Source: Hormiphora californensis
Lineage: Eukaryota > Animalia > Ctenophora
DNA: 64,000 nucleotides
Direction of reading: 5' to 3'
Assembly: GCA_020137815.1 (NCBI GenBank)
Contig: CM035356.1
Span: 4,960,001 to 5,024,000, forward strand
A program made the position numbers and the translations under genes. Positions 7,242-54,792 of the stretch are shown piece after piece (the first letter of the stretch is position 1; every line of letters begins with the position of its first letter). Under the pieces are notes generated by a model. It had not been told where the DNA came from and searched no databases. It was given only the letters and a program-made list of their open reading frames with translations.

Positions 7242-7655
7242 ACATTCATACAAACTAGTTCTGAACTCTAATCTAATGATCTAGTAGAGTAAAACCGCTT
7301 TTGAAAGCAGGAAGATATCCGTAAAGTTTTTTCTTTTATTAGTGTTATCTTACCAATGTATGCTATAAAGCGGTATATTAAATGTTAATTGATGATGATG
7401 ATGATGATGTGGTTGCGTGGCTATAGCCGTTTGAAAAAAGTCGGTCTAAGTGTACTCTTTTGGTAGCACGCACCTGTAAACAGGCCGCAAGGCACCCAGA
7501 TTATAATCGCGCCCATTTTTTTTCGTCGTTTTTTAAAAAAAGATAAGAAATTGACTGCTGTCTGCTGTTTTTACCTGTTTTTATCATTGTTTGATTTCCC
7601 TTGGCTTAATATTGAAAACTAATCTCAAAATTTTCCCAAACTTTAGGGCTCCGCC

Positions 7656-11458: not shown

Positions 11459-12205
11459 AACTTTAATTATTGCATGTTTAGTGACTCCAAGTTCCAGCAC
11501 AGGAAACACGATGAGATCGGTGATTGAGAGATTAAACAGTTTTTATTGAAAGACAATTATAGAACTCGTACAGTTTTAATATGGCATATAAAATACTAGC
11601 GCACCCATTGGGTGCGCCCCAAGTAAGGGCGTTTTGATAACCCACCCGGCTCCGCCAGGTGGCCCTCTTTTTCCCACATATGTCACCAATTCAATGGTTG
11701 CCATGGCAACTAAATCGGTAACTATGGAGACTGAATTGCTAAATTATGTTCCGAAATGATCACAAACTGCCAGCAAAGTAAAAACAACTGCTCCCAAAAG
11801 AGGGCCGGGTGTTAAACGTAACGCTTTGGGTTTGACATCTGATTTAGAGTTCTATTCGACACTCCCATAATGATGGGTGTGGTAATTTAAACATGTGACA
11901 CTGTGCAGTGTACAGAGCTGATGACTGTGAGATATGTGACACTGACAGGGCCTGGTTTCTGATGAGATGAAATGTGATCGGATAGCAGGAGCAGTGAGCA
12001 CACATCAAGAGGACCCAAAACAATTTAAATCAGTGCCATAGCAACATGAAGTGGTCATGGCAGGAAGTTATCATTCCAGGAACGCGCGCATCGGAAGGAG
12101 AAGTTAAAGCAGTCGTTGCCCCTTCATACCATTTCCCCTCCCTGTATTTCCTTGACACAAATCTAACCTAAACCCTTGTAACTTGTTCCCAAATAGAGAG
12201 TCACC

Positions 12206-13789
12206 ATGGTGTTACAGACCTGCACAGTACCCATGAACTTTGGCAGTCACTACCTGAAGTTGAGGGGACTAAACGATCTTCAGCTCATCTGCAGTGGAGG
12301 TGAAGTTGTCCGAACCAGTTCATTTCCCCTGGCTATAAACAGCTTGGTGGTGTCAGAGTTGGTGGGCGAACTTCAAATAAAGGAACTCGACGTGGAAGAG
12401 TTTTCCCATTCTTCCGTCCAATGTTTTGTTGAAGCTTGTTACACGGGATCTGTTATTCTCACCAGGAAAAACTTTCGGGAGGTTAACAAACTTAGTGCAG
12501 TGTTCAAAGTTCAGTGGATAATAGACGAGTGTCTAAAATTCTACACCGACCTCTGCTCGGAGCTGACAACAGGATCTCTAGAGGCGGCATGGTTCCTATT
12601 TCAGGAAGCTGGGTACATCCTCAAGGAGAGGAACAACAAAGACCTACAGCTTGCTCTGAATGCCAGTCTGGGTGGATTGTCTGACCTCCAATTGTCGCTG
12701 GTGAAAGATTTCATCTCCCGTGATCCCAACAAACAGGAGTTTGTGTACACAGATCTGTGTATTTCCCTGGCTGGCAGATCAATCATTGTTCTGTTTGAAT
12801 GGCTCATTCAACTCGTTGAGAGCAAGCCCCCTCCTGTGAAGCTTAGTGGTGTTGAGAAACGGTTACTGACGTCAGAAACACTGGCCCTTTGTTACCAAGA
12901 GGATCCTGAATTGTTCCAGAAGTTGGTTACAACACTGCAACATTCTCTGTCAAACGAAGATCTTGGATCCTTGTTTGCGATATTCTCTCTGGTACAAATG
13001 TCACCACCCACTACTTCTAGGAGTTCCAAGGAAAGTCCTCAGAAGTTAGTTTACCCAATTGAAATACCAGCTCTTGGAGAGTGCACATCATTGCTTGATG
13101 CTGTTTAAGTGATTGATGGAGAACCGAGAATTAATTCATGTGTCCAGTTTGTATCTTCTCTGCTTTACTGCGGTGATATACACGGTGACTCTAATTCACC
13201 AGAGATAGTTGATGCAATAACAGCAGCACTGGACAAGAGACGTTACAATACTACCCATGGGTTACTTGGGGTATCACCAGTAAGTTCAAATCCTTTAATT
13301 GCTAGACGGATTCCTGGATTAATGCAAGTTGTGGCACGTTATGTTGAAAGGAAAGAGGACATTAATAATAATATAAATTTGAGTGAAATATACAGTGATC
13401 GTCTAAAGATTCCATTGCAGCACTCTACATACAATTTCATCGACCTACATAATGGTCCTAGTTACTGTGATGAAAACCCGAAAGGATCCAATAAAAGATG
13501 TAAAGTGGCTTTGAAGACTTCACTTGCTATAAAAGATGAAGAATCTTGGCCAGTTATTACTCTCGAGTTAGTGACGGATAAAGGTATTTTAGACGCTGTA
13601 ACAGATGCTCACTTTCACCAAGACCCTGAGTTTCTACAGCACATAGTTGTTGCTGGTTTTAGTGGTAATTTGGTCCCCCTTACATGCTGTAGTAATCTCA
13701 ACTCCCCTAATGCTTCACTCCTGAAAATCTACAATGACTGCAAAGCTGGTTATGATTTAGATGTGTATGTCTGGTGGCCTCAAACTTGA
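12206..13789 (+). pseudogene. BTB/POZ paralogue 3 with a premature stop
   Basis: GTT AAA in the paralogues is GTT TAA at 13106-13108; the frame continues unchanged to 13789. Confidence 0.8.
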
Positions 13790-14266
13790 CTAGCACTTTA
13801 ATTATTGTACTGAGTAAGTTTAGTGACTCCAAGTTCCAGCACATGAAACACGATGAGATCGGTGATTGAGAGAGAAAAAACAGTATTTGTTGTTAAGACA
13901 ATGAAAAAAGACACCAACTCATATTATGGTTTGATATCCAATCAAGGATGTGTGTGTGGTATTGCATGATTCTTTAGTAACTGTTAAATGACGTGTTGCA
14001 TGTTTCATATAAGTATATCCCTCACAGAGTAAAAGGGTAAAGTTACCATGTTCCTTTCTTACTGTTGGGTTATTATATTAAAGATATAATGATTATTTTA
14101 ATTTTTCATACTTTTTATTCCCTCTTATTTGCAGTGCTTACTTCCAAAACATGGCTTGACCAAATACCAATGTCCCTAATCAACCCAGCACTAACTCTCC
14201 CTTTCTCTCTATTTTTTCCTTGACACAAATCTAACTTAAACCATTGTTCCCAAATAGAGAGTCACC

Positions 14267-15859
14267 ATGGTGTTACAGACCTGCACAGTACCCATGAACT
14301 TTGGTAGACACTACCTGGAGTTGAGGGGACTTAACGATCTACAGCTCATCTGCAGTGGAGGTGAAGTTGTCCGAACCAGTTCATTTCCCCTCGCTATGAA
14401 CAGCTTGGTGGTGTCAGAGTTGGTGGGGGAACTTCAAATGAAGGAACTCGACGTGGAAGAGTTTTCCCATTCTTCCGTCCAATGTTTTGTTGAAGCTTGT
14501 TACACGGGATCTGTTATTCTCACCAGGAAAAATTTTCGGGAGGTTAACAAACTTAGTGCAGTGTTCAAAGTTCAGTGGATGATAGACGAGTGTCTAAAAT
14601 TCTACACCGACCTCTGCTCGGAGCTGACAACAGGATCTCTAGAGGCGACATGGTTCCTATTTCAGGAAGCTGGGTACATCCTCAAGGAGAGGAACAACAA
14701 AGACCTACAGCTTGCTCTAAATACCAGTCTGGGAAAATTGTCTAACCTCCGATTGTTGCTGGTGAAAGATTTCACCTCCCGTGATCCCAACAAACAGAAG
14801 TTTGTGTACACAGATCTGTGTATTTCCCTTGCTGGCAGATCAATCACGGTTCTGTTTGAATGGCTCATTCCACACGTTGAGAGCAAGCCCCCTCCTGTGA
14901 AGCTTAGTGGTGTTGAGAAACGGTTACTGACGTCCGAAACACTGGCCCTTTGTTCCCAAGAGGATCCTGAATTGTACCAGAAGTTGGTTACAACACTGCA
15001 AAAATCCCTGTCAAACGAAGATCTTGGAGCCTTGTTTACGATGTTCTCTTTGGTTCAAAAGTCACAACCCTCTACTTCTAGGACGTCCAAGGAGAGTCCT
15101 CAGAAGTTAGTTTACCCAATTGAAATACCAGCTCTTGGAGAGTGCACAACATTGCTTGATGCTGTTAAAGTGATCGATGGAGAACCGAGAATTAATTCAT
15201 GTGTCCAGTTTGTATCTTCTCTGTTCCACTGCGGTGAAATATACGGTGATTCTAATTCACCAGAGATAGTTGATGCAATAACAGCAGCACTGGACAGGAG
15301 ACGTTACAATACTACCCATGGGCTATTTGGGGTATCACCAGTAAGTTCAAATCCTTTTGCTAGTTGGCTTCCTGGATTGATGCAAGGTGTGAAACGTTAT
15401 GTGGAAGGGAAAGAGGGCATTGGACATAGGTTAGGCAGTGATTGGATATACAATGGTCCTCTAAAGATTCCATTGCAGCACTCTACACACATGTTCCTCA
15501 ACCTACATCATGGTCCCAGTTACTGTGAAGAAAACCCAAAAGGATCCAATAAAAGATGTAAAGTTGCTTTGAAAGTTTCACTGGCTATACAAAATGAACA
15601 ATCTTGGCCAGTTGTTACTCTCGAGTTAGAGACAGATCAAGGTATTTTAGACGCTAAAACAGACGCTCACTTTCACCAAGACCCCGAATTTCTACAGCAC
15701 ATTTTGGTAACGGGGTATAGTCGTGGTGATTGGGTTTCAGTAATAAACTGTAGTAATCTCAACTCCCCTACTGCTTCACTCCTGAAAATCTACGAAAACT
15801 GGAAAGCTGGAAATTATTTGCAGATGGGTATCTGTTGGCCTTATCAAAAACTTGAATAG
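14267..15859 (+). CDS. BTB/POZ-domain protein, paralogue 4 (530 aa)
   Basis: full-length ORF homologous to paralogues 1-3. Confidence 0.85.
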   Translation: MVLQTCTVPMNFGRHYLELRGLNDLQLICSGGEVVRTSSFPLAMNSLVVSELVGELQMKELDVEEFSHSSVQCFVEACYTGSVILTRKNFREVNKLSAVFKVQWMIDECLKFYTDLCSELTTGSLEATWFLFQEAGYILKERNNKDLQLALNTSLGKLSNLRLLLVKDFTSRDPNKQKFVYTDLCISLAGRSITVLFEWLIPHVESKPPPVKLSGVEKRLLTSETLALCSQEDPELYQKLVTTLQKSLSNEDLGALFTMFSLVQKSQPSTSRTSKESPQKLVYPIEIPALGECTTLLDAVKVIDGEPRINSCVQFVSSLFHCGEIYGDSNSPEIVDAITAALDRRRYNTTHGLFGVSPVSSNPFASWLPGLMQGVKRYVEGKEGIGHRLGSDWIYNGPLKIPLQHSTHMFLNLHHGPSYCEENPKGSNKRCKVALKVSLAIQNEQSWPVVTLELETDQGILDAKTDAHFHQDPEFLQHILVTGYSRGDWVSVINCSNLNSPTASLLKIYENWKAGNYLQMGICWPYQKLE

Positions 15860-16207
15860 CACTTAAGTTATTGCATGTACTGAGTAAGTTTAGTGACTCC
15901 AAGTTCCAGCACATGAAAAACGATGAGATTGTGGTTGAGAGAAAAGACAGTATTTGTTGTAAAGACAATGAAAAAAGACACCAACTCATATTATGGTTTT
16001 ATATCCAATCAAGGATGTGTGTGTGGTATTGCATGATTCTTTAGTAACTGTTAAATGACGTGTTGCATGTTTCATATATCCGGGGGGGTCGTCATGTTAA
16101 TGTTAATGTTTCATGAAAATTTTTAAAATGTTAACATTAACATTATTAACATTATTAACATTATTAACAAAAAAAGAAGCTTTTTTAAGTCTTTTTGAAG
16201 CTTTTAA

Positions 16208-17507
16208 GTGTACGCTAACCAAAATTTTTCTTCGAGTGCAGGGAAATCTCTCACCGCAGGGTTGTAGGCCATGCCAAGGAGACCTCAAATATGCAATTTT
16301 AGCCCTCAAGTCGAATTCATATTTTTGCTACAGCCGTTTTAAAATCGTCTTGAAAATTTCTGAAAAGACGTTTTTGACACCCTAAAAATACATTTTCAGG
16401 GCTAGAAGCTTAAAATTATGGGGATTTGAAGGGGATAGGAAGGTTTATCGACACAAAAATTTTTATTGAAATCGGTGATGATTTTCGTTCGTGAGATTGA
16501 TTTACTTTTTTCCCTCTTAAAGGCCCTATTTAGCAAAGTTCCGAAAGTTTGTGAAGGCTGTAAATTGGTGAAAAGTTGCGTCTAACGATTATCTAAGTGG
16601 CCACAAATTTTTGGCGTGTCCTTATTTGAGACAAGTTGTACAGAGCTTTTTTTGTGAAAGCCGTTTTTTTAGAAATAAAGAAATAGCCTGTATCTCAAAA
16701 ACGACTGATTTTAGAGACCTGAGACCAAGCTTAAACGATTCAGAAGGTCCGATTTTGGGGGGGTCTTCTGAGAGACATTTTTCTCCTACTTCAACGGTTT
16801 TCGCTGTAATTGCGAAAAACAAATCCTTTAAAGAGGGCAAAAGAGGAGTTCCGACAGCCTGCTTCGTGCTGCTTTTCCACCTTCTTGCTAAATCCTTTTT
16901 CGCAATTACAGCAAAAACCGTTGAAGTAGGAGAAAAATGTCTCTCAGAAGACCCCCCCAAAATCGGACCTTCTGAATCGTTTAAGCTTGGTCTCAGGTCT
17001 CTAAAATCAGTCGTTTTTGAGATACAGGCTATTTCTTTATTTCTAAAAAAACGGCTTTCACAAAAAAAGCTCTGTACAACTTGTCTCAAATAAGGACACG
17101 CCAAAAATTTGTGGCCACTTAGATAATCGTTAGACGCAACTTTTCACCAATTTACAGCCTTCACAAACTTTCGGAACTTTGCTAACTAGGGCCTTTAAGA
17201 GGGAAAAAAGTAAATCAATCTCACGACCGAAAATCATCACCGATTTCAATAAAAAATTTTGTGTCGATAAACCTTCCTATCCCCTTCAAATCCCCATAAT
17301 TTTAAGCTTCTAGCCCTGAAAATGTATTTTTAGGGTATCAAAAACGTCTTTTCAGAAATTTTCAAGACGATTTTAAAACGGCTGTAGCAAAAATATGAAT
17401 TCGACTTGAGGGCTAAAATTGCATATTTGAGGTCTCCTTGGCATGGCCTACAACCCTGCGGTGAGAGATTTCCCTGCACTCGAAAAAAATTTTTGGTTAG
17501 CGTACCC
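16208..17507. mobile_element. 1.3-kb foldback element with ~610-bp TIRs, flanked by TTAA (Kolobok-like termini), nested in the element above
   Basis: TTAA|GTGTACGCTAACC...GGTTAGCGTACCC|TTAA; near-perfect arms 16208-16819 and 16896-17507 around a ~76-bp spacer. Confidence 0.85.
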
Positions 17508-17710
17508 TTAATCCCGCTTTAATAGATCATTTGCGTTATTTTTGACAATATTATACGTACTACCCATCCAATCAACACTGATATACAGTCGAACCCCGAT
17601 TTAATGGCCCCCGATTTAGTGGCACCCCGATTTAGTGGCAGGATTTTTTCCCCAAAAATTTTTTTGAATTTTTTTTGTGAATTTTTTTTTGAATTTTTTT
17701 GACCCGCCAC

Positions 17711-18857
17711 TAGTGCGGTAATATGACGAAAATTTTTCGGCATAATCGTTCTAAAGCTAATTCCACTTCTAGGGTACTCTATAGGGTCCCTAGAATCAAC
17801 CCCTGAAGTTGTCGCAAGATCGGCGATGAAGAACTTGCCTTAATTGGGCCTAATTGGTGCTTTCAGCCTGAAGCCAAAACCATAAGTACCCTTAAAATAG
17901 GAGTATAGACAAAACCGAGGGCACTAAAGTGATCAGCGTCCTCGCATTAGTGGGGGTAGGTGCTGGAATTAAGTCTCTATCTCATCTGGTTAATTAGTTA
18001 ATTGGATAATTAGATCTGCACATAGCCGTTTTCGGCCATATGGCTATAGCCACTTAGGAATGGTTTAGAGACATTTCACGGGTGCCATCTTGTAGACAAT
18101 GGCCAAGTTGTGGGTGGTCGACGTCGGACTTTTATGCTCTATCTCCAACCGTTTAGCCGTTATTTGGTTTGCTCAAAATCGGGCTTTTTACCGTTTTTTG
18201 CTCATTTTGAGCACCTTTAAAGCCAAATAACGGCTAAACGGTTGGAGATAGAGCTTAAAAGTCCGACGTCGACCCCCCATAACTTGGCCATTGTCTACAA
18301 GATGGCACCAGTGAAATGTCTCTAAATTAACCATTCCTAAGTGGCTACAGCCATATAATGGCCGAAAACGGCTATGTGCAGATCTAATTATCCAATTAAC
18401 TAATTAACCAAATGAGATAGAGACTTAATTCCAGCACCTACCCCCACTAATGCGAGGACGCTGACCATTTTAGTGCCCTCGGTTTTGTCTCTACTCCTTT
18501 CCTAACATAGCTATAGCCATATGGCCAAAAACGGCTATGCGCAGAGCTGATTATCCAATTATCTGATTAACCAGATGAGATAGAGACTTAATTCCAGCAC
18601 CTACCCCCACTAATGCGAGGACGCTGATCACTTTAGTGCCCTCGGTTTTGTCTCTACTCCTATTTTAAGGGTATTTATGGTTTTGGCTTCAGGCTGAAAG
18701 CACCCTGTAACCAATCAGGCCCAATTAATGCAATTTCTTTATCGCCGATCTTGCGACAACTTCAGGGGTTGTTTCTTGGGACCCTATAGAGTATCCTAGA
18801 AGTGGAATTAGCTTTAGAACGATTATGCCGAAAAATTTTCGTCATATTACCGCACTA
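17711..18857. repeat. Internal ~1.15-kb palindromic module of the composite transposon
   Basis: TAGTGCGGTAATATGACGAAAATTTTTCGG... mirrored by ...CCGAAAAATTTTCGTCATATTACCGCACTA; partial internal duplication at ~18500-18660. Confidence 0.85.
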
Positions 18858-19549
18858 TTTATACATTAAACTGGTGTTCTTTACTCGTATACCCCTCCTT
18901 TGTTATAATGACCCTTTTCTTACCTCAAAACCTTTGATGAAATCCAAACAATTATCCTAGCTATGAAATATCTGCCATGGGAGATAGTGAGTTTATGATA
19001 GAAACACCTAAACACACCTAAAAACACATAAAACAGCTATAAACCGACTAAAAACATCTAAAACGCGATTTTTGTTAATTTTGTTAATTTTGTTAATTTT
19101 GTTAATGTTTCACCAAGGGTCGTTTGTTAATTAACAAAACATTAACAAAATTAACATGACGACCCCCCCATATATCCCTCATAGAGTAAAAGGGTAAAGT
19201 TACCATGTTCCTTTCTTACTGTTGTTTTTTATCGAAATTTTTATTTCCATTAAAAATAACAGGGGGTTGAAATAATACTTTCTATCCCCTGTTGTTTGCA
19301 GTGCTTACTTCCAAAACATGGCTTGACCAAATACTTGGCTCCGCGCGAAAAAGAGGGCGCGACGTGCCCAAACCAAATACCAATGTCCCTAATCAACCCA
19401 GCACTAACTCCCTTTCCCTATCGCACACTATCTTTCTCTCTCTTTCTTACCCAATCATCTTATTGTTGCCCTCATTTTACCATTTCTCCTCCCTGTATTT
19501 CCTTGACACAAATCTAACCTAAACCCTTGTTCCCAAATAGAGAGTCACC

Positions 19550-21169
19550 ATGGTGTTACAGACCTGCACAGTACCCATGAACTTTGGCAGGCACTACCTG
19601 GAGTTGAGGGGACTTAACGATCTACAGCTCATCTGCAGTGGAGGTGAAGTTGTCCGAACCAGTTCATTTCCCCTCGCTATGAACAGCTTGGTGGTGTCAG
19701 AGTTGGTGGGGGAACTTCAAATGAAGGAACTCGACGTGGAAGAGTTTTCCCATTCTTCCGTCCAATGTTTTGTTGAAGCTTGTTACACGGGATCTGTTAT
19801 TCTCACCAGGAAAAATTTTCGGGAGGTTAACAAACTTAGTGCAGTGTTCAAAGTTCAGTGGATGATAGACGAGTGTCTAAAATTCTACACCGACCTCTGC
19901 TCGGAGCTGACAACAGGATCTCTAGAGGCGACATGGTTCCTATTTCAGGAAGCTGGGTACATCCTCAAGGAGAGGAACAACAAAGACCTACAGCTTGCTC
20001 TGAATACCAGTCTGGGAGAATTGTCTGACCTCCGATTGGCGCTGGTGAAAGATTTCACTTCCCGTGATCCCAACAAACAGGAGTTTGTGTATACAGATCT
20101 GTGTATTTCCCTGGCTGGAGGAGAGGAAGTGATAGTTCTTTACGAGTGGCTGATTGGGAATATTGAAGGTAAGCCCCCTCCTGTGAAGCTTAGTGGTGTT
20201 GAGAAACGGTTACTGACGTCCGAAACACTGGCCCTTTGTTCCCAAGGGGCTCCTGAATTGTACCAGAAGTTGGTTACAACACTGCAACATTCTCTGTCAA
20301 ACGATGATCTTGGAGCCTTGTTTTCGAAATTCTTTTTGACTCTGGTTCAAATGATACCAGCTGCAACCCAATCCTCCAGTAGCTTCCAGGGAAGTCCTCA
20401 TCATGTTATATACCCAATTGAAATACCAGCCTTCGGAGAGTGTACAACATTTCTTGATGCTGCTAAAATAATTGACGGAGAACCGAGAATTATCTCCGGG
20501 TTCCAGTTTATATGTTCTCTACACTATTGTAATGCCATGTATGACGTGCATGATGTGACATCTTCACCGGATGTTGTTGATGTGATAACAGCAGCACTGG
20601 AGAAGAGACGTTACAATACTACCCATGGACTATTTGGAGCTAAATGTGCCGCTTATGGCTTTTCAGGTAGCTTTTCCTAAAATATATGAGGTTGTGGAAC
20701 AGTACATGGAAGGGAATTAAGTACAGGGAGGGGCATGAGTTAGATAGCTGTGTGGTATACAATGGAAGGCTAGAAACCCCTTTGGAGCATTCTACAAAAC
20801 GTGTTTTTTGACCTCCATGCTGGACCTAGTTACTGTGCAGAAAATCCACGAGGATCGGGTAAAAGATGTAAGGTGGGATTTAAGGTGTCACTTGTGGTGA
20901 AGGATACACTTTCCTGGCCAGTTGTTACTCTCGAGTTGGTGACAGATCAAGTAACTTTGGGACTTGAAACAAACGTTCATTTTCACCAAGACCCTGAACT
21001 CCTACAGAACACGTTTGCAATGGGTTCCAGTGGTGACGAATGTTGGGTCCCTTTCATCTTGTGTAGTGATCTGAACACCTCTACTGCTTCACTTCGTGTA
21101 CTCTTTGGAAAGTGTAATCAGAACAATATGGGAGTAGAAATCTTTTGGCCTCGACAGAGACTTGCTTGA
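19550..21169 (+). pseudogene. BTB/POZ paralogue 5: divergent C-terminus, several frameshifts/stops at ~20670-20800
   Basis: homologous segments FPKIYEVVEQYMEG, GHELDSCVVYNGRLETPLEHST and FFDLHAGPSYC lie in different frames; some shifts are in homopolymers and could be sequencing errors. Confidence 0.7.
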
Positions 21170-26067: not shown

Positions 26068-32872
<6,805 letters not shown>

Positions 32873-40901: not shown

Positions 40902-41216
40902 TTATAGTCTTGTGTATATTATTTATTGCCAATCACATTTTAGAGAGAGAGTTGTACAGTATATGAGATCAGTATTTTTATACCATGTGCATGTGTAAAT
41001 ATAAGTCAGCTTTTTACCGTGTTTTGTGTGTAGAGTTATTATGTAACTTATATATTGTGAACAACTGATGTTTCTCTCCTTCCCCCAGCTTGAATGAATT
41101 ATGCAGTCCCAAAAATGTGTACAAATTGTACACTTTAATTCCCCTCCCCAGTATCTGTTTAAGGGACCAACTTACAAAAGTATACCCGGGTAATATCCTC
41201 ATTCAAACTCTATCTA

Positions 41217-44200
41217 CTAGATCATGATTCATACCCCCTACCTTTCTATCTAGATATCATGATTCATACCCCCTACCTTTCTATCTAGATATCATGATTC
41301 ATACCCCCTACCTTTCTATCTAGATATCATGATCCATACCCCCTACCTTTCTATCTAGATATCATGATCCATACCCCCTATCTTTCTATCTAGATATCAT
41401 GATTCATACCCCCTACCTTTCTATCTAGATATCATGATTCATACCCCCTACCTTTCTATCTAGATACCATGATTCATACCCCCTATCTTTCTATCTAGAT
41501 ATCATGATTCATACCCCCTACCTTTCTATCTAGATATCATGATCCATACCCCCTACCTTTCTATCTAGATACCATGATTCATACCCCCTACCTTTCTATC
41601 TAGATATCATGATTCATACCCCCTATCTTTCTATCTAGATATCATGATTCATACCCCCTACCTTTCTATCTAGATATCATGATCCATACCCCCTACCTTT
41701 CTATCTAGATACCATGATTCATACCCCCTACCTTTCTATCTAGATATCATGATCCATACCCCCTACCTTTCTATCTAGATATCATGATTCATACCCCCTA
41801 CCTTTCTATCTAGATATCATGATTCATACCCCTACCTTTCTATCTAGATATCATGATTCATACCCCCTACCTTTCTATCTAGATATCATGATTCATACCC
41901 CCTACCTTTCTATCTAGATATCATGATTCATACCCCCTACCTTTCTATCTAGATATCATGATTCATACCCCTACCTTTCTATCTAGATATCATGATTCAT
42001 ACCCCCTACCTTTCTATCTAGATATCATGATTCATACCCCCTACCTTTCTATCTAGATATCATGATTCATACCCCCTACCTTTCTATCTAGATATCATGA
42101 TTCATACCCCCTATCTTTCTATCTAGATATCATGATTCATACCCCCTACCTTTCTATCTAGATATCATGATTCATACCCCCTACCTTTCTATCTAGATAT
42201 CATGATTCATACCCCCTACCTTTCTATCTAGATATCATGATTCATACCCCCTACCTTTCTATCTAGATATCATGATTCATACCCCCTACCTTTCTATCTA
42301 GATATCATGATTCATACCCCCTACCTTTCTATCTAGATATCATGATTCATACCCCCTACCTTTCTATCTAGATATCATGATTCATACCCCCTACCTTTCT
42401 ATCTAGATATCATGATTCATACCCCCTACCTTTCTATCTAGATATCATGATTCATACCCCCTATCTTTCTATCTAGATATCATGATTCATACCCCCTATC
42501 TTTCTATCTAGATATCATGATTCATACCCCCTATCTTTCTTCGATATAATGATATGTAATCCCCATGTTTAACAGAGATCATGATTATCATGACAGAAGG
42601 AAAAGTACTACTTCTATATAGATTATACTAGATTACTACTACTTAGTCCAGTTCCCCGCATTATACCCCATCTTATCTAGAACTCTATCCGATTACCCCT
42701 ACTTTACTATCTAGATATCATGATCATCCCCTATCTTCTATCTAGATATGATTCATACCCCTAAAATTTCTATCTAGATACATGATTCATACCCTATTCC
42801 ATCTAGAATCATGATCAACCCCACCTTTCATTAGATACAGATTCATACCCTCCCTACCTTCTATTACTACATATCATGACTCATACCCCTACGTTGCTAT
42901 CTAGATATCAGATTCATCCGCCTACTTCTATCTAGATATCATGATTCATACCCCCACCCCTTTTTATTAGATCATATTCAACCCCTACCTTTTTATCTAG
43001 ATACATGATCATACCCCCTTTCTTTCTATCTAGATATCATGATTCATACCCCCTATCCTTTCTATCTAGATATCATGATTCATACCCCCTACCTTTCTAT
43101 CTAGATATCATGATTCATACCCCCTATCTTTCTATCTAGATATCATGATTCATACCCCCTACCTTTCTATCTAGATATCATGATTCATACCCCCTACCTT
43201 TCTATCTAGATATCATGATTCATACCCCCCTACCTTTCTATCTAGATATCATGATTCATACCCCCTACCTTTCTATCTAGATATCATGATTCATACCCCC
43301 TATCTTTCTATCTAGATATCATGATTCATACCCCCTACCTTTCTATCTAGATATCATGATTCATACCCCCTATCTTTCTATCTAGATATCATGATTCATA
43401 CCCCCTACCTTTCTATCTAGATATCATGATTCATACCCCCTACCTTTCTATCTAGATATCATGATTCATACCCCCTATCTTTCTATCTAGATATCATGAT
43501 TCATACCCCCTACCTTTCTATCTAGATATCATGATTCATACCCCCTACCTTTCTATCTAGATATCATGATTCATACCCCCTACCTTTCTATCTAGATATC
43601 ATGATTCATACCCCCTACTTTCTATCTAGATATCATGATTCATACCCCCTATCTTTCTATCTAGATATCATGATTCATACCCCCTATCTTTCTATCTAGA
43701 TATCATGATTCATACCCCCTATCTTTCTATCTAGATATCATGATTCATACCCCCTACCTTTCTATCTAGATATCATGATTCATACCCCCCTATCTTTCTA
43801 TCTAGATATCATGATTCATACCCCCTACCTTTCTATCTAGATATCATGATTCATACCCCCTACCTCTCTATCTAGATATCATGATTCATACCCCCTACCT
43901 TTCTATCTAGATATCATGATTCATACCCCCTACCTTTCTATCTAGATATCATGATTCATACCCCCTACCTTTCTATCTAGATATCATGATTCATACCCCC
44001 TACCTTTCTATCTAGATATCATGATTCATACCCCCTACCTTTCTATCTAGATACCATGATTCATACCCCCCTACCTTCTATGTAGATATCATGATTCATA
44101 CCCCCTATCTTTTCTATCTAGATATCATGATTCATACCCCCTATCTTTCTATCTAGATATCATGATTCATACCCCCTACCTTTCTATCTAGATATCATGA

Positions 44201-44973
44201 TTCATACCCCCTACCTTTCTATCTAGATACCATGATTCATACCCCCTACCTTTCTATCTAGATATCATGATTCATACCCCCTACCTTTCTATCTAGATAT
44301 CATGATTCATACCCCCTACCTTTCTATCTAGATATCATGATTCATACCCCCTACCTTTCTATCTAGATATCATGATTCATACCCCCTACCTTTCTATCTA
44401 GATATCATGATTCATACCCCCTACCTTTCTATCTAGATATCATGATTCATACCCCCTACCTTTCTATCTAGATATCATGATTCATACCCCCTACCTTTCT
44501 ATCTAGATCATGATTCATACCCCCTATCTTTCTATCTAGATATCATGATTCATACCCCCTACCTTTCTATCTTGATATCATGATTCATACCCCCTATCTT
44601 TCTATCTAGATATCATGATTCATACCCCCTACCTTTCTATCTAGATATCATGATTCATACCCCCTACCTTTCTATCTAGATATCATGATTCATACCCCCT
44701 ACCTTTCTATCTAGATATCATGATTCATACCCCCTATCTTTCTATCTAGATATCATGATTCATACCCCCTACCTTTCTATCTAGATATCATGATTCATAC
44801 CCCCTACCTTTCTATCTAGATATCATGATTCATTATACCCCCTATCTTTCTATCTAGATATCATGATTCATACCCCCTACCTTTCTATCTAGATATCATG
44901 ATTCATACCCCCTACCTTTCTATCTAGATATCATGATTCATACCCCCTATCCTTTCTATCTAGATATCATGAT
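41217..44973 (+). repeat. 35-bp minisatellite (~107 copies) containing the WDR13 acceptor and start codon
   Basis: unit TAGATATCATGATTCATACCCCCTACCTTTCTATC; the last copy runs directly into ATG ATC CCC TCA... at 44969. Confidence 0.95.
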
Positions 44974-45832
44974 CCCCTCAATAAGTGCGTTGGAACAGCA
45001 GAATATACAGAAGATACTAGCGCTAGATGCTCGGCTACAACAACAACAGGAATGCAACGCCGAAATCTGAAGACACTTTACATGAGGCGCAGGTATATTA
45101 ATTGGCGGGAATCATCGTAAACCTCTGGTTATGATGTCAATTAACTTTTCTTTGATAAATGATAATTGTTAATTGACATTTGCATTACGATTAACATATT
45201 ATGTTAATTCTCTTTCCCATGATTCATGACAAGACTCTCGATTTATGAAGGAAAGCAACACTCAGTTCCCCCTTCCCCCTTCTTATTACTACTACTTAGG
45301 TCCCAGTTGCTACGTGAGAAGTGTGATAGAGATCGGTATTACCAGACTAGATCGAAGCTACTGTCTGTGAAGTACCCGGGCGTCAAGACACTGGGTAAGA
45401 TATTAATTAGGAGATGGGATGGGACAGAGGTATACTGTATAATAGGGAGATGTATCTCTCTAGATGGGTGTTGGTGGTAATTGCGCCTTTGTAAGACGGG
45501 ATAAACGTATTATAGCGAGGGGAGAGAACTGAGAAAACGTACCTGTTATATCTTCAAAGAAAGTGGCTCTGTAAAACATTTCTTTGAATCTTCCAGCCAA
45601 CTCAAATAATGTAGCGCTTGACTATTCTTGAGTCTCATGATTGATAATAGTTCTTGTGTTTATTGGACAAGTTAGACTCGCTGGATATTATTGGATGAAA
45701 CCAGATATTTCGGTGTTTAACACCATCATCAGTAGTAGCTAAAAATAGAACATATTACGAATAGGAATCAAAATCGAAATTCATGTCAAAACAATCACGT
45801 ACTCTCTATCTCTCTCACTCTCACTCTCTATA

Positions 45833-45884
<52 letters not shown>

Positions 45885-46609
45885 TCTCACTCTCACTCAC
45901 TCACTCTCTCTACTCAACTCACAAACTCTATCTCTCACTCTCTCCCCCTCTCTCTCACTCATTCTCACATCGGATCAGATATACATAAATTCAGATTGTA
46001 CTATACACAGAGCTATGACGAGTACTCTAGGACTTTTTTTTTCTTTTTTTTTTCTCGCGACCTCTCCGCGTCCTTAGTGTCACCGAAGGCTAGCGCTATC
46101 TCTAGGACTTATCAACTATTACTGACTAGGAAGCCTAGAGCACTCTCACACTCTTTCTTGTTGTTCAGAGTAGGTTTCAGTTGTTGTATGAAATCAGCTT
46201 CACTAATCTTTCTCTGTATAGTTCTCGAAAGATTCGATTTCAGTATTTCCAAACTTAAAATAGGGGTACTACCCTCGTGTGTCTCACTATAAAGAGACAC
46301 ACGAGGGTAGTACCCCTATTTTAAGTTTGGAAATACTGAAATCGAATCTTTCGAGAACTATACAGAGAAAGATTAGTGAAGCTGATTTCATACAACAACT
46401 GAAACCTACTCTGAACAACAAGAAAGAGTGTGAGAGTGCTCTAGGCTTCCTAGTCAGTAATAGTTGATAAGTCCTAGAGTACTCGTCATAGCTCTGTGTA
46501 TAGTACAATCTGAATTTATGTATATCTGATCCGATGTGAGAATGAGTGAGAGAGAGGGGGAGAGAGTGAGAGATAGAGTTTGTGAGTTGAGTAGAGAGAG
46601 TGAGTGAGT

Positions 46610-46671
<62 letters not shown>

Positions 46672-47032
46672 TATAGAGAGTGAGAGTGAGAGAGATAGAG
46701 AGTACGTGATTGTTTTGACATGAATTTCGATTTTGATTCCTATTCCTAATATGTTCTATTTTTAGCTACTACTGATGATGGTGTTAAACACCGAAATATC
46801 TGGTTTCATCCAATAATATCCAGCGAGTCTAACTTGTCCAATAAACACAAGAACTATTTTCCAGCCAACTGCTCGGTCTTTTATACTAAACTTTACAAGA
46901 TTACATCGAGCCTTCACTAGATTACATTCCTTCCAACTTATGTTTTTCTGGCCTTGTTCCCCCTGGCTCCCCCTCTCGCCGCTATCCCTTCGCGTTCTAG
47001 GGTTAGAGCATTTCTCTCTAGATCAAGTTATC

Positions 47033-47162: not shown

Positions 47163-50086
47163 AGTTAACATAACAATCTCTCTCTCACTCTCTAGACAAC
47201 AGATCAAGTTCCCGTACGGAAAGTATGCACAGTAGAACGTGCAGTATGGACAGCCTCGATATTATTGCAGTAGGCAAGCCAACACCGGGTCATCTTACGC
47301 CGCAGCACCTTACACCTAATATCAGGTACAGCCTAGCAGTTTAGTGTGGTGGTGGTTGTTATGTTCTAACCCTCCCTTTACATTTGTGTGGGGCGCCCGA
47401 AACACAGTATAGCCAGGCAAGGTGGTGGTGGGTGTAAATAAAAATCTTAAATCCGTGAGATGAAGTTGTCGACAGGACTGGTATCCGACATGCTTCCCTA
47501 AATAATAAAAGTTTTTTAGGGACGCCTTTTAATAATTTTATCGGTTACATTCCCATCATTCATTTTTATCTTTTTAATTTTACCCTTTATCTAGGAAGAC
47601 GTCCCCACGACATCCCGCAGTGAGCGATAAGAATAGCTATGCTTTCACTGACATGCCTCACATATTCGATCAACATTCAAAGTAAGCCCCACAGATCATG
47701 CGTTAAATAATGTTCCCAATTCCTGGCAATTCATTAACTCACTTACCACTGTGTATTCAAACAGTTCCCCTTCTCTTCAGGGCAGTTCGAGTTGTTAGGT
47801 TTGCCCACAACAGTTGTACTATGCTGGCATGCTGCTCCGATGATTTCACCATCTCTCTATGTTCCCTTACCCCTTACGCTGTTCTCAACCTTCTCCAGGG
47901 ACATACCGGACCTGTCAGGTATAGGGATTGCTCCTTCATAAAACATTATTTTGCTCCTTCATAAAACTACCCAATTACCTCTAATTTTCTCAGAGATATG
48001 GATTGGTCTATTGATAATAGTATGATCCTCTCTGGATCGTCTGATGGAACGGTTCGATTGTGGAACTGTGACCAGGGCAAATGTATACGGGTTGTCACTA
48101 ATAATAGCCCTATTTCTGCTGTTCGCTTCCAGGTGATTTATAGTGGCAAGAAAGGGAAAACGGCTAAAGTATAGCATTTATAGTATGTACATATTTAGTA
48201 ATATTTAGTAATATTGATATTTAGTTAATGTTTTATAGTTGTTTGGGGTGCTGAGAAATCAGTTAGTTAAATATTTAACTGTGGCTACTAGCCAGAATTG
48301 TAGTAGCCAGAGTTGTAGTAGCCAGAGCTGTAGTGGCCAGAGAAGTGGGTCACCTGTTTGGAGTGCTGAGAAATATTTTATTTCAGCCAATGAACAACAA
48401 TGTATGCGTAGCTGGAGACGAGGATGGCGTTTTGAAGGGATACAACCTGAGCACTGGAAAACAACTTTCAGGTACAAAATGATTATTAACATTTGCTATA
48501 GAAACTTTCCTTGTGTTTTAATAACATGTTTCAGGATCACGTGAGAAGATAAGTAACAGTTTGACCTGCCTGGAGTTCGGGCCTAACAGCAGTATCGTGT
48601 GGGCTAGCAACAATAAAGGACAGATATTCGCTATCAGTGTCCATCCTTTGGTAGGTGGTGATGTTTGGTAATGAAATTACCCCTCCGGAAAAGCTCATAT
48701 ATGCAATATAATAACAGGGGTGACTTCGTAACCAATGGTAATGTCGTTAATCACAGTCGGACCCTAACTGGAACCCCGATTTACCGGTTCGACTGTATAG
48801 TGTATAGTATACACTATACAGTTGAACCGGTAAATATATATAATACACTGTATACCCCATTTGTCGAGCTAGCTTAGCACCTACCAAAGTTTTTGAAATA
48901 TCCAGACTTTCCGTAATTATCATCGTACGAAATGTCTCTATTCCCAATTATTATCGCCTCCCAATTTGTGACATTATGTAACCATGTCCCTTCTTAACTT
49001 TAAACTCTCAACCACAGACGTGTCAGATGAAAAAGATGAAGGGAAGTGGGGTTCCTGGGGGAGGGTCTATTGTCAGTTTGGCGGTCCGTGCAGGACACCC
49101 AACCCCCCTTCTTATTGCATCCTCTACATCTGATTACATTTTCATGTTTACCATTGAAAGTAAGTCCCCCTAGTTTGTTTGTTTGTGTTACAAATAGTTA
49201 TTGAATTGTCGGGGGACCATTGTCATAAATTCGAAAGTTCGCGATATATCGACACTCCATAGTTCCCCTACTTTCTAATTTTCTCATACAAGACTGTCCT
49301 CGACTCGCGGCCCTCTATCTTTCCCACTTCACTCACACAACTACAATTTCAGAGGAGGTTCTACTCCTTCAAAGAAAGTGTGCAGTACGACTAAATGGAC
49401 TTCCAATTAGGAGCGTGTTCTGCCCCATAGCAACCGCAAATAGGGTAGGTAATCGAAAAACAGAAAGTAGAAGTACCCCAAATTGGTAACAATTAACCGA
49501 ACTATTCCCTCGATTTGCACTAGTTTGTGCTTTAGCTGACCAGCTATTTCCCAGGGTGCATTCACGGTATCTGGTTGTGCCGATGGATCAGTCCTGGTGT
49601 TCGATATGGAGAAGGGCAAGGCCGTTAACAAACTCCAGGGACATTCCTGGTAAGTTGATATATATATTTGGAAGCATTTGGAATCACTTTGTGGTGTGAG
49701 TTTGTGGTGTGGGGGTTGGGGGTTTGGGGGGTTGGTATAGTGAGTTCTAATCATTATATAGGGCTTGTCAGCCAAATGTTATCGCTGAAACGACCTCATA
49801 CTATTCTGTACTATCAGTTGATTGTTTGAGTAAAACAGTGCCGGAATAATGGACTGGCGGACTGCACATTACCGGAACATGTTCAATTATCATCCAGTGA
49901 CCACTTGAATCGCATAATAAATATGTCTGTTACTACTTTAATTTGAGCGTCAATCAGTACTTAATTTTCTCTTCTTTTCTTCTATCGAAGGAGCTGGGAA
50001 GTATTTATTAATGTTTGCTGTTGCCCTGAATCACGCGGAGTACAGCTATTTCTGGTTATCATTTCCTCTCTCTCTCTCTCTATATA

Positions 50087-50123
<37 letters not shown>

Positions 50124-50817
50124 GAGGCATAAACTCTGGCCACTGGCGCGTTATTTCAGATAACTTTCTCCCAGCGCGCCGCTGGGAGAAGTTAGCTGGA
50201 GTTTATCCGCCGCTGGCGGATAAACTGGTTTAAATCACGACGACGATCCCGAGGCGGAGCCGAGGGAGAGGCGGAGGGGTTTAAACCTATAACGTGCCAG
50301 TGGTCAGAGTTTATGGGTTATATACCCTGCTTTAGTTGTTTATTTCAAGTATTACACACCAACAAGAGAGAGAACACTAATCAAAACACACAAAGAGAAC
50401 TGAGAAATAGTTAAAAACACGTCACAATTGAGTGTACACTGTTTGGTAACAGTTACTAAGCAGTTGCTAAGGAAAGAGAGTGAAAGAAATAGCCTGATAA
50501 GGGGCATGTCACAAATAACACAGAGAAAGAGATAGTGAGACAAAAGGGGAGATAAAGAGAGAGTAATTGACGGAATGTGTCCTTTCTTTCTCTCCAATGT
50601 AGTGTGTAAGTGTTGCACATAGTGTTCCCTCTGTATTTTAGTAAGAACTGATCATTTACACACACTTTGAATGTTACGTAGGAGTTAAAAATAAATAACC
50701 TGCCAGTGGGAAATAATCTGCCGCTGGACTGGCTGTTTACTGAGAGCGCGCTAGTGGGACTTCTCGCCACTGGCGCATTATTTAAGTTAGCAGGGTATAT
50801 ATATATATATATATATA

Positions 50818-50848
<31 letters not shown>

Positions 50849-50982
50849 CTCTCTCTATATATCTCTCTTAGTAAATGTATGTTTCTCTCCCTAGCTGCCT
50901 ATAGAGTACTACAATTCAGTCTTGCTTATACCTACCAATACACATAGACATCGGTCTCCCTCTCTCACTATCTCTCTCACTA

Positions 50983-51030
<48 letters not shown>

Positions 51031-51280
51031 CCTCTACCTCTTCCTCCTTCCATCTGTTTGTATTACTGATTTCCATCTTCTGTCAAGCTTTTCGACTATC
51101 TTAGCCTGACGTTTTAAAGGACCACTTACTGACCACAAACACGCAGAAGAGATAGGCGATAGGAGAGAGAGCAGAGGCGAGGGGAGGAGAAGAAGAGCAA
51201 ACTAAAAGAGAATCTACCATGAGAGCAATAGAGAATAGAAGGAAATATAGGAAATACATATACGACTGAAAGCTCCTATA

Positions 51281-51337
<57 letters not shown>

Positions 51338-53829
51338 CTGTGCAGTTTGCGTATTTTCTCATTTACATTTATCCTCCCTCTCATCCGACTGTCTGTATAT
51401 ATTCCCGTATTTAACTGTCCCAAGCCACAGAGAGATAGGAAAGTCACGTGACTGCAACAACTCACGTGATCATCATCATCATCATGGCCTCCTCTTTGCC
51501 GTCCTCTCTTCAATGCCAGGACTCTGCTCTCTCGCCCGCCCTCAATCTTGTCTCCAGTTTTTCCAATCTTCTCTCCCAGCCCACTGCAGACCACGCCCTT
51601 GCTCCGTTCCGTATTCCCCAACTTCTCCACCTCAACTCCACTGCTAACACCTCCTCGGATGAAATGGAAACTGACGTTAGACGGCCCCCAAAACGAACCA
51701 AGCCACTTCTTCTCGACATGGCCACTGGTGTTTCACCTGACTCCCCTGCTCCCCGGGTAACAGGATCCAAGACACACTTTGTGTCCACTCCCCGGCTCAG
51801 CAGGAGGCTTCTCAATGCAGGCCTCCTCAGCAGTAGTAGCGTGGAGGGTCCCCCAGGAGGAGGGGAGACAGTTGGAAGTGTTGAGATGGCACCAGCTGAA
51901 CGATCTTCATCTTTACCAGGACAACAACAACAACCGCTCCTACCAGCCACAACAACGAGATCTCTTTCAACAAGCCGCGTACCACCGGGTGTTGAGTTCC
52001 ATTTCTCACCCACAATGGATGCGCGCCCTGCATCTCCCATCCCCATGGTAACAATCTCACCTCCTTTGGGTGGGAGTCTGGAGGACGTAGCAGAACAACT
52101 CAACCCCCAATCACCGGCTGTTGATGGCACCCACCACCCTGTCATGGAGGAATCAAATAGCATCTTCTCAGTTACTCCGGATCCTAAGATTCTCCAACGA
52201 TTAATTGATATCTCCGTAGCCCAGCCGGTGCTGCCACCCGCGTTTGAAACAGGATCTTTCCAGGTGATATCTGATCCGGATAACATCACTGGGGATCAGG
52301 TGACACCATCCCAGCCGGTACTTCAAAGTTTCTCCGTTACCTCTCCACGAGTTTCAAAGAAGGTAACCATTAGCAACAACAAACAGCAACAGGTGAAATA
52401 ATGACATGTGACAAATCGATGGGTAAACTTGCTAGTTCAGCACAAGATATTTCTGTGCCCATCCCCAACAACATGATAAGAAAGTGCGGATCAAGCCGAG
52501 ATATATCCTCCTCAGCACCTCAACAGCAGACACTCCGAGATATGATGGGACCACACAGGACTCACCATGTTTCCGCACAGGATGTCACCATGACAACGAA
52601 ACTATCGAGTTATGATGAAGTTCCCCCTCCAAATCAACACAGGGGTTCAATACAAAGTGAGAATATCCTCCACAAGTCTAACGAGGCTGATGATAAGTGT
52701 ACCAAAGTGGATATCCTCCATAAATCTAAAGTGGAGGACGATCCGGGATGCGACACGTTCTCTCTTGACTCCTCGATATACAGCGGTATGGGCAAGCACT
52801 CCTCGACAATTTCAAGGAACCTGAACAACTACGCCAGTACTCTTCCAAAGGGTCCTGTCCAGAAGCAGCTCAACAAAAGCCTGACTAGTCTGAGGACTGG
52901 GATGTGTGGAAATGATGAAACTATCTACGAGAAGATTGATAGGAATGATGTTTCAAAGAAAACCAAGGATAACATTTGTACAACATTGAACCTCCCACCG
53001 CCTCTCCCACCCCCATCTGCCATCTATCTGTCCGCCCCTACCTGGTGTTCGTGCCGGAGATGCTGTGATGGAGACACAGGGTTTGTGTGTTGTCTCTCTC
53101 TACCGGAGCTTATCTTCCTCTCTAACGGATCCCAGTGTGTTACCAAGAGCAGTCTCTTCTGTGAGGTTGTCCTCAACAAGGCAGGGTTGAGGTTGAGCGA
53201 TTGGCTGGGTAAGAAGACGCTAAGTGGCTCTACGGTCCAGAAGAACAACACGTACCGACATCTGGCGTACAACTCCTTCGTCCAGTTGGTATCGAGTAAT
53301 GTGAGGAAGCAGTGGACAGAGAAAGTGTTACCTTCATGTGTTGTCACGGCAATAAGACAGATTTATCCCTCCGCAAACAACCGATACAACGGACCAGTTC
53401 GATCAAAATGAGATAGAGAGATTAGGTAAGGAGCATATTTTGTGTTGGAGAGCTTGCTGTGTACTATATATCTGTCCATGTAGCTACGGGGGATTACCTA
53501 CAACTCTGGCACATGCAACTCTGGCTCATAGAAGTGTGATCTGATTAGGTCACCGCTAGGGGGGGGGGATGACATACCCTAAATCGCATGCGTTATCTGA
53601 CACACATGTTATCTGTCACAGATGCTATCTGTCACACATGTTATCTATCACACATTAACAATCTATCACACATGTTATCTGTCACACATTATCTTAATCT
53701 ATCACACATTAACAATCTATCCCCTGCAGCCCGGTATACGCGGTGTGTTTGAGTTACGATGAGAACGTTCTGATTAGTGCTGACTCCAGTGGAACTGTCA
53801 TTGTTTGGCAGAAAAAGGAACCCGCATAA
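44969..53829 (+). CDS. WDR13: WD repeat-containing protein 13, multi-exon; small apparent frameshifts in early exons are probably consensus errors
   Basis: IQKILALDAR...LYMRRRSQLLRE, HIFDQH..AVRVVRFAH...LACCSDD, DWSIDN...SGSSDGTVRLW, VSGCADGSVLVFD...AVNKLQGHS and final exon PVYAVCLSYDENVLISADSSGTVIVW all match WDR13. Confidence 0.9.
45700..45736 (-). ncRNA. Minimal type I hammerhead ribozyme, inverted copy
   Basis: reverse complement of 46768-46804. Confidence 0.75.
46036..46099 (-). mobile_element. Short poly(A)-tailed retroposed insert in one Penelope arm
   Basis: poly-T tract plus ~47 unique bp, flanked by the 11-bp direct repeat CTCTAGGACTT; absent from the other arm. Confidence 0.7.
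46768..46804 (+). ncRNA. Minimal type I hammerhead ribozyme (Penelope-associated)
   Basis: ACTA-CTGATGA-T-GGTG TTAAA CACC-GAAA-TATC-TGGT: conserved core, 4-bp stem II, short stem I, minimal stem III. Confidence 0.75.
50124..50795. mobile_element. Non-autonomous element inserted in a (TA)n microsatellite, possibly Crypton-type
   Basis: (TA)n on both sides; split inverted repeats CATAAACTCTGGCCACTGGC / GCCAGTGGTCAGAGTTTATG and TATACCCTGCT / AGCAGGGTATA; CCGAGGCGGAGCCGAGG motif at 50249. Confidence 0.5.
51484..52401 (+). CDS. Ser/Pro-rich, probably disordered ORF nested in the last WDR13 intron; likely the N-terminal half of the next ORF
   Basis: ~305 open codons of non-repetitive sequence; the stop overlaps the next ATG (TAATG). 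Confidence 0.6.
   Translation: MASSLPSSLQCQDSALSPALNLVSSFSNLLSQPTADHALAPFRIPQLLHLNSTANTSSDEMETDVRRPPKRTKPLLLDMATGVSPDSPAPRVTGSKTHFVSTPRLSRRLLNAGLLSSSSVEGPPGGGETVGSVEMAPAERSSSLPGQQQQPLLPATTTRSLSTSRVPPGVEFHFSPTMDARPASPIPMVTISPPLGGSLEDVAEQLNPQSPAVDGTHHPVMEESNSIFSVTPDPKILQRLIDISVAQPVLPPAFETGSFQVISDPDNITGDQVTPSQPVLQSFSVTSPRVSKKVTISNNKQQQVK
52401..53411 (+). CDS. Protein with a C-terminal P2X7 cytoplasmic ballast / Nanor-like Zn-binding domain, nested in a WDR13 intron
   Basis: WCSCRRC...CC...CVTKSSLFCEVVLN...NNTYRHLAYNSF...VLPSCVVTAIRQIYPS...YNG parallels P2X7 WCQCG.C...CC...CITTS.LF..LVL...RHCAY...LPSCC...IR..FP....YSG. Confidence 0.8.
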   Translation: MTCDKSMGKLASSAQDISVPIPNNMIRKCGSSRDISSSAPQQQTLRDMMGPHRTHHVSAQDVTMTTKLSSYDEVPPPNQHRGSIQSENILHKSNEADDKCTKVDILHKSKVEDDPGCDTFSLDSSIYSGMGKHSSTISRNLNNYASTLPKGPVQKQLNKSLTSLRTGMCGNDETIYEKIDRNDVSKKTKDNICTTLNLPPPLPPPSAIYLSAPTWCSCRRCCDGDTGFVCCLSLPELIFLSNGSQCVTKSSLFCEVVLNKAGLRLSDWLGKKTLSGSTVQKNNTYRHLAYNSFVQLVSSNVRKQWTEKVLPSCVVTAIRQIYPSANNRYNGPVRSK

Positions 53830-54792
53830 CATGTGAGAAATAGCTGTCAGAGCATTGTTCTCACGGAGAAATAGACAGTTTGCTTCTGAACACTACACTA
53901 TTGACAAAAGGATTTAAACTGTGTTTATGGGTTTTTTCATTTCGATCAACGATACCTTTTAGTTTTTGAGAACTAGGCGAAAATGTTTTATTGAAGTGTT
54001 ATGATAATAATAATAAAGACTGAGCTCTAAAATTTAATTGCTTCTGTAATGATGATGTATTATGTGTGTTACAGTGCTGCTTGTAGTGGGAATACGGTGT
54101 CTGAATAATACGGTATTTGACCATTACGGTTTCTGAAATACATATGTATTTGAAATACATATATATTTCGGTGTCACGTGTTTTCAATCTGGCGCTCTGA
54201 TTGGTCTCGTCTTACCGTTTTTCACTGATACCGTGTTGAACCGATACTGTATTCTCACTACAAGCACCCATGTTACTGTTTTGAATTTGAAATTTCGACA
54301 TTGTTAACTGGTTTTATCATTTGGTTCGGACATGTCTTGTCTTGTTGGTAGGCGGTAAATGTTAACCAGATCTGATAGAATACGTACATGCATAACTCAG
54401 TCATTTCTTTTGCAAATTGGTTAAGAAATGGCTGAGGTATGGGCAAAACCGTGCGTCTTGTTACTCAACAATTCATCTCGGTTGTCATTGTGAATAAAGC
54501 ATGCTGATCTCGTGACAGAGGGTGTATCTCTGATGGAAACTAATAAAATGCAACTCACTTAAGACAGCTCACAGCCGACAGACAGGCGAAGAAGAAAAAA
54601 ATGGTGAAATTTTTTAAAGCTGTCTGGCGCCGCGCAAAACTATGCCGCGCAACAAAATCGTTGCGCGGCCCCTTTTCTTGAGCGCGTGCTGTAAAATTAT
54701 CATGTTTAAAAAAATAATAAAATGCATTTTTGAAATTTTTTTTGAAAAGTGTTGCTGGGTGTTTCGTGAGTGCTGACAAACGGTTTTGTAGC

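Follow-up and report, generated by a model that had tools for sequence, protein, structure and literature searches.

A channel-free ballast protein gene within the last intron of a WD40 gene in the ctenophore Hormiphora californensis

We found that a 64,000-nucleotide stretch of Hormiphora californensis DNA (the window) carries an intact gene, under purifying selection, for a protein that ends in the ballast domain of the P2X7 receptor and has no channel. The gene is almost certainly a functional gene of its host genome. Taken as a whole, the reading that we find somewhat better than even is that of a domesticated KolX-type ballast which, together with a disordered arm, would act as a soluble signalling scaffold.

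Results

The coding region begins with the ATG at 51484 and ends with the stop codon at 53409–53411 on the plus strand. As it stands in the window, it is divided into two overlapping frames, 51484–52401 (305 aa) and 52374–53411 (345 aa). We compared it with contigs from DNA runs of two samples, S1 and S2, which come from separate studies. Two S1 contigs were identical to the window where they align, and S1 may be its source. The frame was restored in all six listed organism-A contigs that cross 52380: X1, X3, X5 and X6 carried one base more, X2 was shorter by two, and a second X6 contig was shorter by eight on balance. The shallow metagenome contig X7 had 14 gap letters of unstated sign. Among the indels listed, those in the rest of the ORF summed to 3, 6 or 9 bases per contig, and the database protein P0003 spanned the frame junction without a break. 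Because six of six contigs from two samples restore one ORF of 641–642 aa, the interrupted frame most likely reflects a mistake in the assembly. The original prediction of about 1.9 kb of intronless coding sequence therefore applies to the single ORF of the read contigs, but not to the two frames of the window.

Table 1. Positions of the gene, its host exons and the features discussed in the text (window coordinates).
Feature	Position	Strand	Remarks
Penultimate exon of WD40 host	49555..49649	+	Phase-2 donor GTAAGT at 49650
Last intron of host, contains ballast gene	49650..53729	+	GT...CAG ends
Non-coding, high-copy element flanked by (TA)n runs	50125..50800	.	Separate from ballast gene
Candidate splice acceptor, spliced-leader or cis (putative use)	51320..51345	+	Pyrimidine share 0.88, CAG
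Two TCACGTGA E-box palindromes	51443..51469	.	Just ahead of ATG; 2 of 6 in window
Ballast gene CDS	51484..53411	+	641–642 aa in read alleles; two overlapping frames in window
Shared motif A	51544..51573	+	Residues 21–30; 26–31 onward in three relatives
Shared motif B, KPxLL after basic residues	51676..51723	+	Residues 65–80
Shared motif C, VLPP core	52222..52245	+	Residues 247–254
Frame break	52379..52381	+	Polymorphic AAC repeat; likely consensus error
Tyrosine motif ETIYEKI, predicted SH2 ligand	52917..52937	+	38 residues ahead of ballast
Proline-rich PPPLPPP, possible SH3/WW ligand	52995..53015	+	Just ahead of ballast
Ballast (P2RX7_C / ZCD / KolX-like) domain	53043..53411	+	Pfam, phmmer, fold
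AG/GTAAG donor	53424..53430	+	14 nt past stop; predicted partner is host's last exon
Last coding exon of host	53730..53829	+	Predicted second use as ballast gene 3′ UTR
First poly(A) hexamer after the two stops	54012..54017	+	Nine variants searched, 53412–54100

A check on selection, suggested along with the prediction, gave a strong synonymous bias. Of 51 distinct substitutions within the ORF, drawn from the rows with the best support (40 of 170 in one set, 40 of 124 in the other), 43 were synonymous, compared with an expected fraction of 0.22–0.26. The synonymous share was 19/21 before the break, 13/19 in the middle part and 11/11 in the ballast. In run X1, contig depth was 46–80 over the ORF and approximately 47 over the host exons, a rough measure that is not a copy number.

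The last 128 residues of the protein matched the Pfam family PF20478 (P2RX7_C) with 61–63 bits (best 63.2; gathering cut-off 23.5), and phmmer aligned the domain with residues 473–590 of rat P2X7 (E 3.8e-8), indicating that the Cys-rich region does have the expected P2X7 C-terminal pattern. An AlphaFold2 model of the domain, based on a 128-row alignment, had a pLDDT of 89.5. All 14 Foldseek matches of this predicted model at E ≤ 0.001 were P2X7 (TM 0.63–0.69). In a wide structural search, the rat P2X7 structure 6u9v was found with Z 11.1 (116 residues aligned at rmsd 3.1), and the next chain had Z 3.5; both comparisons with P2X7 that had been proposed, by profile and by model, thus agreed with the prediction.

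The zinc-site cysteines were complete (7/7, in three clusters), and all seven occurred in 10 of the 11 rows of alignment A1; the CC pair, which was shifted in the phmmer alignment, was placed by motif order and alignment A2. Three of the five guanine-nucleotide contacts of rat P2X7 (R546, H547, R574, R578 and K583) had kept their equivalents. Residues equivalent to R546, H547, Y550 and R578 were present, and the equivalents of R574 and K583 were V and S. Outside deuterostomes, PMC7016195 reports only R546 and R578 of the nucleotide site. From these residues, we expect the ballast to bind two zinc ions and probably a guanine nucleotide. No P2X channel family matched the ballast protein in Pfam, and no membrane helix was found, the best 19-residue hydropathy being 1.0–1.2 compared with 1.9 in a P2X7-like control; the predicted lack of a channel domain therefore stands. 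The domain shares with the P2X7 ballast (PF20478; 6u9v) its fold, at a TM of about 0.68, its cysteines, the four conserved equivalents and its C-terminal place. In contrast to P2X7, however, the ctenophore protein has no channel or membrane helix, has V and S in place of R574 and K583, has spacing loops of other lengths between the cysteine groups and carries approximately 515 low-complexity residues ahead of the ballast.

The nearest protein in our searches was a Pleurobrachia bachei model, 98% identical across the domain and 85% identical along a portion of the arm. A total of 201 matches had E ≤ 0.001; among the best 150 of these 201, nine further clusters showed 43–60% identity and 96–149 bits, after which the score dropped to 62 bits or less among the matches listed. 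One of the nine is Bolinopsis microptera XP_063683271.1 ("mucin-2-like isoform X1"), whose ballast is 57–60% identical and which shares the architecture, the tyrosine motif and both motif B and motif C, but which is annotated as a mucin, unlike the product of the ballast gene. Two other candidates, P0016 and P0074, were rejected as repeat artefacts without PF20478. In a tree of 31 hand-chosen rows, from which P0056 was dropped, the ten clusters formed one branch with support 100/98 and a long stem. A 151-row quick-search tree, with 4 rows omitted, also put the ten clusters together; in both trees, clade membership had been set by likeness to the query. Pleurobrachia bachei and Bolinopsis microptera are named members of this clade, and we take the other eight of its ten clusters to be ctenophore as well. 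With good confidence, the gene is conserved across ctenophore orders.

The domain is preceded by 410–713 residues in four full-length relatives and by approximately 1090 in a fifth, compared with a median of 56 residues in other matches (n = 110). The description "Nanor-like" is thus right as to the channel-free ballast and misleading as to the approximately 515 residues before it. Nanor and the other ZCD-only proteins (PTHR36981; PMC7016195) likewise have a channel-free C-terminal ballast and no other known domain; however, they are relatively short, whereas members of the ctenophore clade have long arms with shared short motifs.

The arm is rich in S, P and T, with a combined share of 0.29–0.35, as the predicted long S/P-rich region implied, and is likely disordered. 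Motifs A–C, taken from P0157, P0007 and P0155, occurred in the same order in the first frame of the window, indicating that both halves form one protein that starts near 51484. These motifs were picked by eye, and in shuffled sequences the score of motif A was reached in 4 of 300 cases and those of motifs B and C in none of 300 each. Motif B was also the top BLASTP segment against P0157 (E 0.014). P0009 had none of the three motifs and P0011 had motif B only. When the complete N-terminal 260 aa of the three relatives were used as a profile, the protein encoded in the window did not stand out, its score being equalled in 157 of 500 shuffles.

Closer to the ballast, 8 of 10 clade members had Y-E-x-[ILVY] no more than 70 residues from the domain, compared with 7 of 90 other matches. 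Eight was never reached in 5000 shuffles, a count to be read knowing that all motifs were selected after viewing the sequences and that the members are akin, with about five independent lineages having the tyrosine motif and two lacking it. According to PMC5417323, pYEEI is a ligand of all eight Src-family SH2 domains. A PxxP was present at the position of PPPLPPP in 4 of 10 clade members, and YxFEP upstream of the domain in 22 of 90 other matches compared with 0 of 10 clade members.

The entire ballast coding region lies within one host intron, on the strand of the host. The exons on either side of this intron join to give a single open WD40-like C-terminus, and the host exons matched WD40 families only in Pfam; the host may be WDR13, as the original prediction labels it. 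The GT–AG ends and the joinable exons support the same-strand position as predicted. By contrast, the accompanying claim that same-strand nesting is uncommon was not borne out, as PMC8527503 puts the number of nested genes in Hormiphora californensis at 2357, a large share of them parallel to the host, and reports leader sequences on 56% of long reads. The parallel nested genes described there are likewise ORFs within one intron, on the same strand and with a transposon on one side. The ballast gene differs from them in that it likely uses the last exon of the host, which would make its transcript overlapping and not strictly nested. Its nesting is ordinary for these animals. In two metagenome scans for the DNA around relatives, none of the 19 pattern matches of one and none of the 59 of the other were confirmed.

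No ATG occurs from the acceptor end at 51345 to 51484, and the mRNA may start near 51346 through a spliced leader or a local promoter. The ORF would be one exon, with the donor at 53426 spliced to the last exon of the host, which would serve as the 3′ UTR and supply the poly(A) signal. The AG/GTAAG at this donor, noticed post hoc, is the sole occurrence in the 4-kb intron and one of 19 in 128 kb over both strands, or approximately 0.007 per 50 nt. None of nine poly(A) hexamers was found from 53412 to 54012, i.e., until past the host stop. Because a strong donor follows the stop codon by 14 nt and the poly(A) signals are laid out in this way, the sequence suggests, on balance, that the ballast mRNA uses the last exon and poly(A) signal of the host. 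The term "stand-alone" therefore suits the ORF, which runs from its own ATG to its own stop, but not the transcript, which likely shares both elements with the host. A spliced-leader-like 16-mer at 49930–49947 was considered as a leader gene and rejected, as no GT follows it.

A similarity between the ballast and KolX, mentioned in the original prediction, is in print. In the text of PMC9587614, KolX of the Kol0 Kolobok has the ballast fold and Nanor is a likely domesticated KolX; the Kolobok range given in that text includes no ctenophore, and a word search of four of its supplementary files for four ctenophore names found none. The TTAA elements reported for the window are indeed present, for example at 26081–32859, with GG...CC ends and matching termini of approximately 50 nt. 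A search for TIRs flanking the gene was negative: none of 37 × 39 site pairs around it gave matching TTAA-bounded termini (best 11/14), and no bracketing 12-nt inverted repeats were found. The six frames of the window contained one ballast match. No intact, unspliced transposase-like ORF of at least 130 aa was seen near the gene by inspection; the Pfam run covered five other ORFs or exons of the window and one more exon. The stop is not followed by an A-run of at least 8, and the window contains a single ballast copy, so that, of the proposed "domesticated or retroposed" origin, the domesticated host gene is retained, and the window gives no sign of retroposition. In X1, the element at 50125–50800 had a summed contig depth of approximately 83,000–94,000 compared with approximately 47 in neighbouring bins.

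KolX (PMC9587614) has the same fold as the ballast and a coding region that is likewise in one piece. However, the ballast gene differs from KolX of Kol0 in having no TIRs, TTAA duplication or nearby transposase-like ORF and in being under purifying selection. We consider an origin of the gene from KolX fairly likely; the tree gives no direction, from host to transposon or from transposon to host. Constraint and the absence of TIRs agree with the prediction that an early-branching animal has a ballast protein free of a channel, as opposed to a live transposon.

Discussion

The locus could be explained in other ways. If the frameshift were true, it would be a pseudogene or two separate genes, as the window itself, out of frame at 52380, would have it. 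This is hardly credible given three different in-frame alleles over all six organism-A contigs of two samples, the other listed indels in totals of 3, 6 or 9 bases per contig, and a P0003 that runs across the junction. It is also very improbable that the gene is a KolX passenger of a recent or decaying Kolobok copy. KolX shares the fold (PMC9587614), and Kolobok-like TTAA elements are present in the window; however, the gene has neither TIRs nor a TTAA pair and no long transposase-like ORF close by, its depth resembles, by a rough measure, that of the host exons and not that of the adjoining repeat, and its synonymous bias is strong. The long N-terminal arm and the absence of YxFEP from the clade, compared with its frequency in other matches, also argue against a passenger. 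A further explanation is that the WD40 host uses the ORF as an alternative exon, yielding a WD40–ballast fusion through an acceptor at 51558. This acceptor (pyrimidine share 0.79) fits the phase-2 donor of the host with the frame staying open, and acceptor and donor flank the ORF as in a cassette exon. However, it lies at codon 25 and cuts motif A, splicing to the acceptors ahead of the ATG runs into stops within 34 codons, and the propeller would presumably lose its last strands. Five long relatives (P0007, P0009, P0011, P0155 and P0157) have their own N-termini without WD40, and a search of proteins of 519–2000 aa gave three matches, none with WD40, which is weak evidence. We therefore regard the fusion as improbable and retain a host gene with its own start.

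For the function of this gene, we propose that an ancient domestication of a Kolobok KolX gene gave rise to a host ballast protein. The ballast would be a folded hub holding zinc and guanine nucleotide, and the disordered arm would offer short docking motifs to partners. A tyrosine kinase could phosphorylate Y-E-x-[ILVY], 34–57 residues ahead of the domain, and an SH2 protein could then bind. This phosphotyrosine-scaffold role is tentative, at somewhat less than even odds. The same domesticated gene might instead act in the nucleus, in transcription, chromatin or transposon control, with motif B as an NLS. A nuclear role would suit a transposon accessory protein, and motif B is basic in the window protein; moreover, PMC7016195 cites a transcription-regulation hypothesis for zebrafish Nanor, and PMC9859053 calls the ballast's molecular function unclear even in P2X7. 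On the other side, no DNA-binding family was among the Pfam matches, the tyrosine motif is enriched in the clade, and the conserved part of motif B is its PxKPKLLEM core, which is more docking-like and, we assume, resembles MAPK D-motifs. We consider the nuclear role the less probable of the two, at well below even odds. More doubtful still is a view in which the ballast was a host signalling module already in the last common ancestor of animals, with ctenophores keeping a phosphotyrosine-scaffold hub, Kolobok having captured and not donated it, and a choice between cis-splicing and SL trans-splicing acting on the shared last exon. If this were true, the host protein would come from cis-splicing and the ballast protein from spliced-leader trans-splicing of the same transcription unit.

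Channel-free ballast proteins (Nanor) and the KolX link are already in print; what is new is the occurrence in ctenophores, the long arm with its motifs and the last exon that is probably shared. In the mostly open-access literature on ballast, Nanor, KolX and Kolobok that was covered, no ctenophore ballast gene was found described. The advance is moderate, because channel-free ballasts and the KolX link have been published and nested genes are routine in ctenophores. In Rump et al. 2020 (PMC7016195), channel-free ZCD proteins are spread over animals and none were seen in Mnemiopsis or ctenophores. The ctenophore family extends the ballast to a phylum where that survey found none, implying that the domain is older than the earliest animal split or was independently domesticated there. 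Its conserved linear motifs also offer a concrete way to test the idea that signalling complexes are organised by ballasts.

Mobile elements, repeats and the BTB gene array

We searched the window in six frames, and the Kolobok-like element yielded no match to the ballast domain; no coding frame was evident in this element either. Its termini match over about 50 nt, and it contains nested inverted repeats. The arms of the two foldback elements are 616 nt (first element) and 393 nt (second element) long, with a complementarity of 99%, and the minisatellite array shows a strong strand skew. The BTB assignment was made by running Pfam BTB on copy 1 of the array. The genes are spaced at about 2.1–2.3 kb, with one gap of 5.3 kb; in the window sequence, both copy 3 and copy 5 are interrupted.

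Features outside the host intron
Feature	Position	Description
LINE-type element ORF	846-3770	intact, 974 aa; endonuclease and reverse transcriptase
BTB-domain genes	7647-21169	five, intronless, tandem array
Long foldback elements	16204-17511 and 45643-46861	near-perfect
Kolobok-like element	26081-32859	6.8 kb, TTAA-flanked, GG...CC ends
Minisatellite array	41095-45000 (approx.)	35-nt unit

Host intron and ballast clade

The intron of the WD40 host gene that holds the ballast gene also contains a very high-copy non-coding element (50125-50800) with (TA)n runs on either side. The part of it that starts at about 50320 has ends matching over 11–12 nt; it may resemble non-autonomous Crypton elements. 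A 16-mer at 49930-49947 in the same intron is similar to the ctenophore spliced-leader 3' end, with no GT directly after it. Within the ballast ORF, 42 nt (52941-52982) recur in the DNA sequencing runs X2 and X3 on a different contig, where the flanking sequences are dissimilar.

Among the proteins grouping with that of the window, the clade member represented by database entries P0011 and P0156 is 1217–1228 aa long and carries an arm with repeated acidic NPDNFDRYG-type units. Together with P0012, it forms the deepest branch of the ballast clade in the tree.
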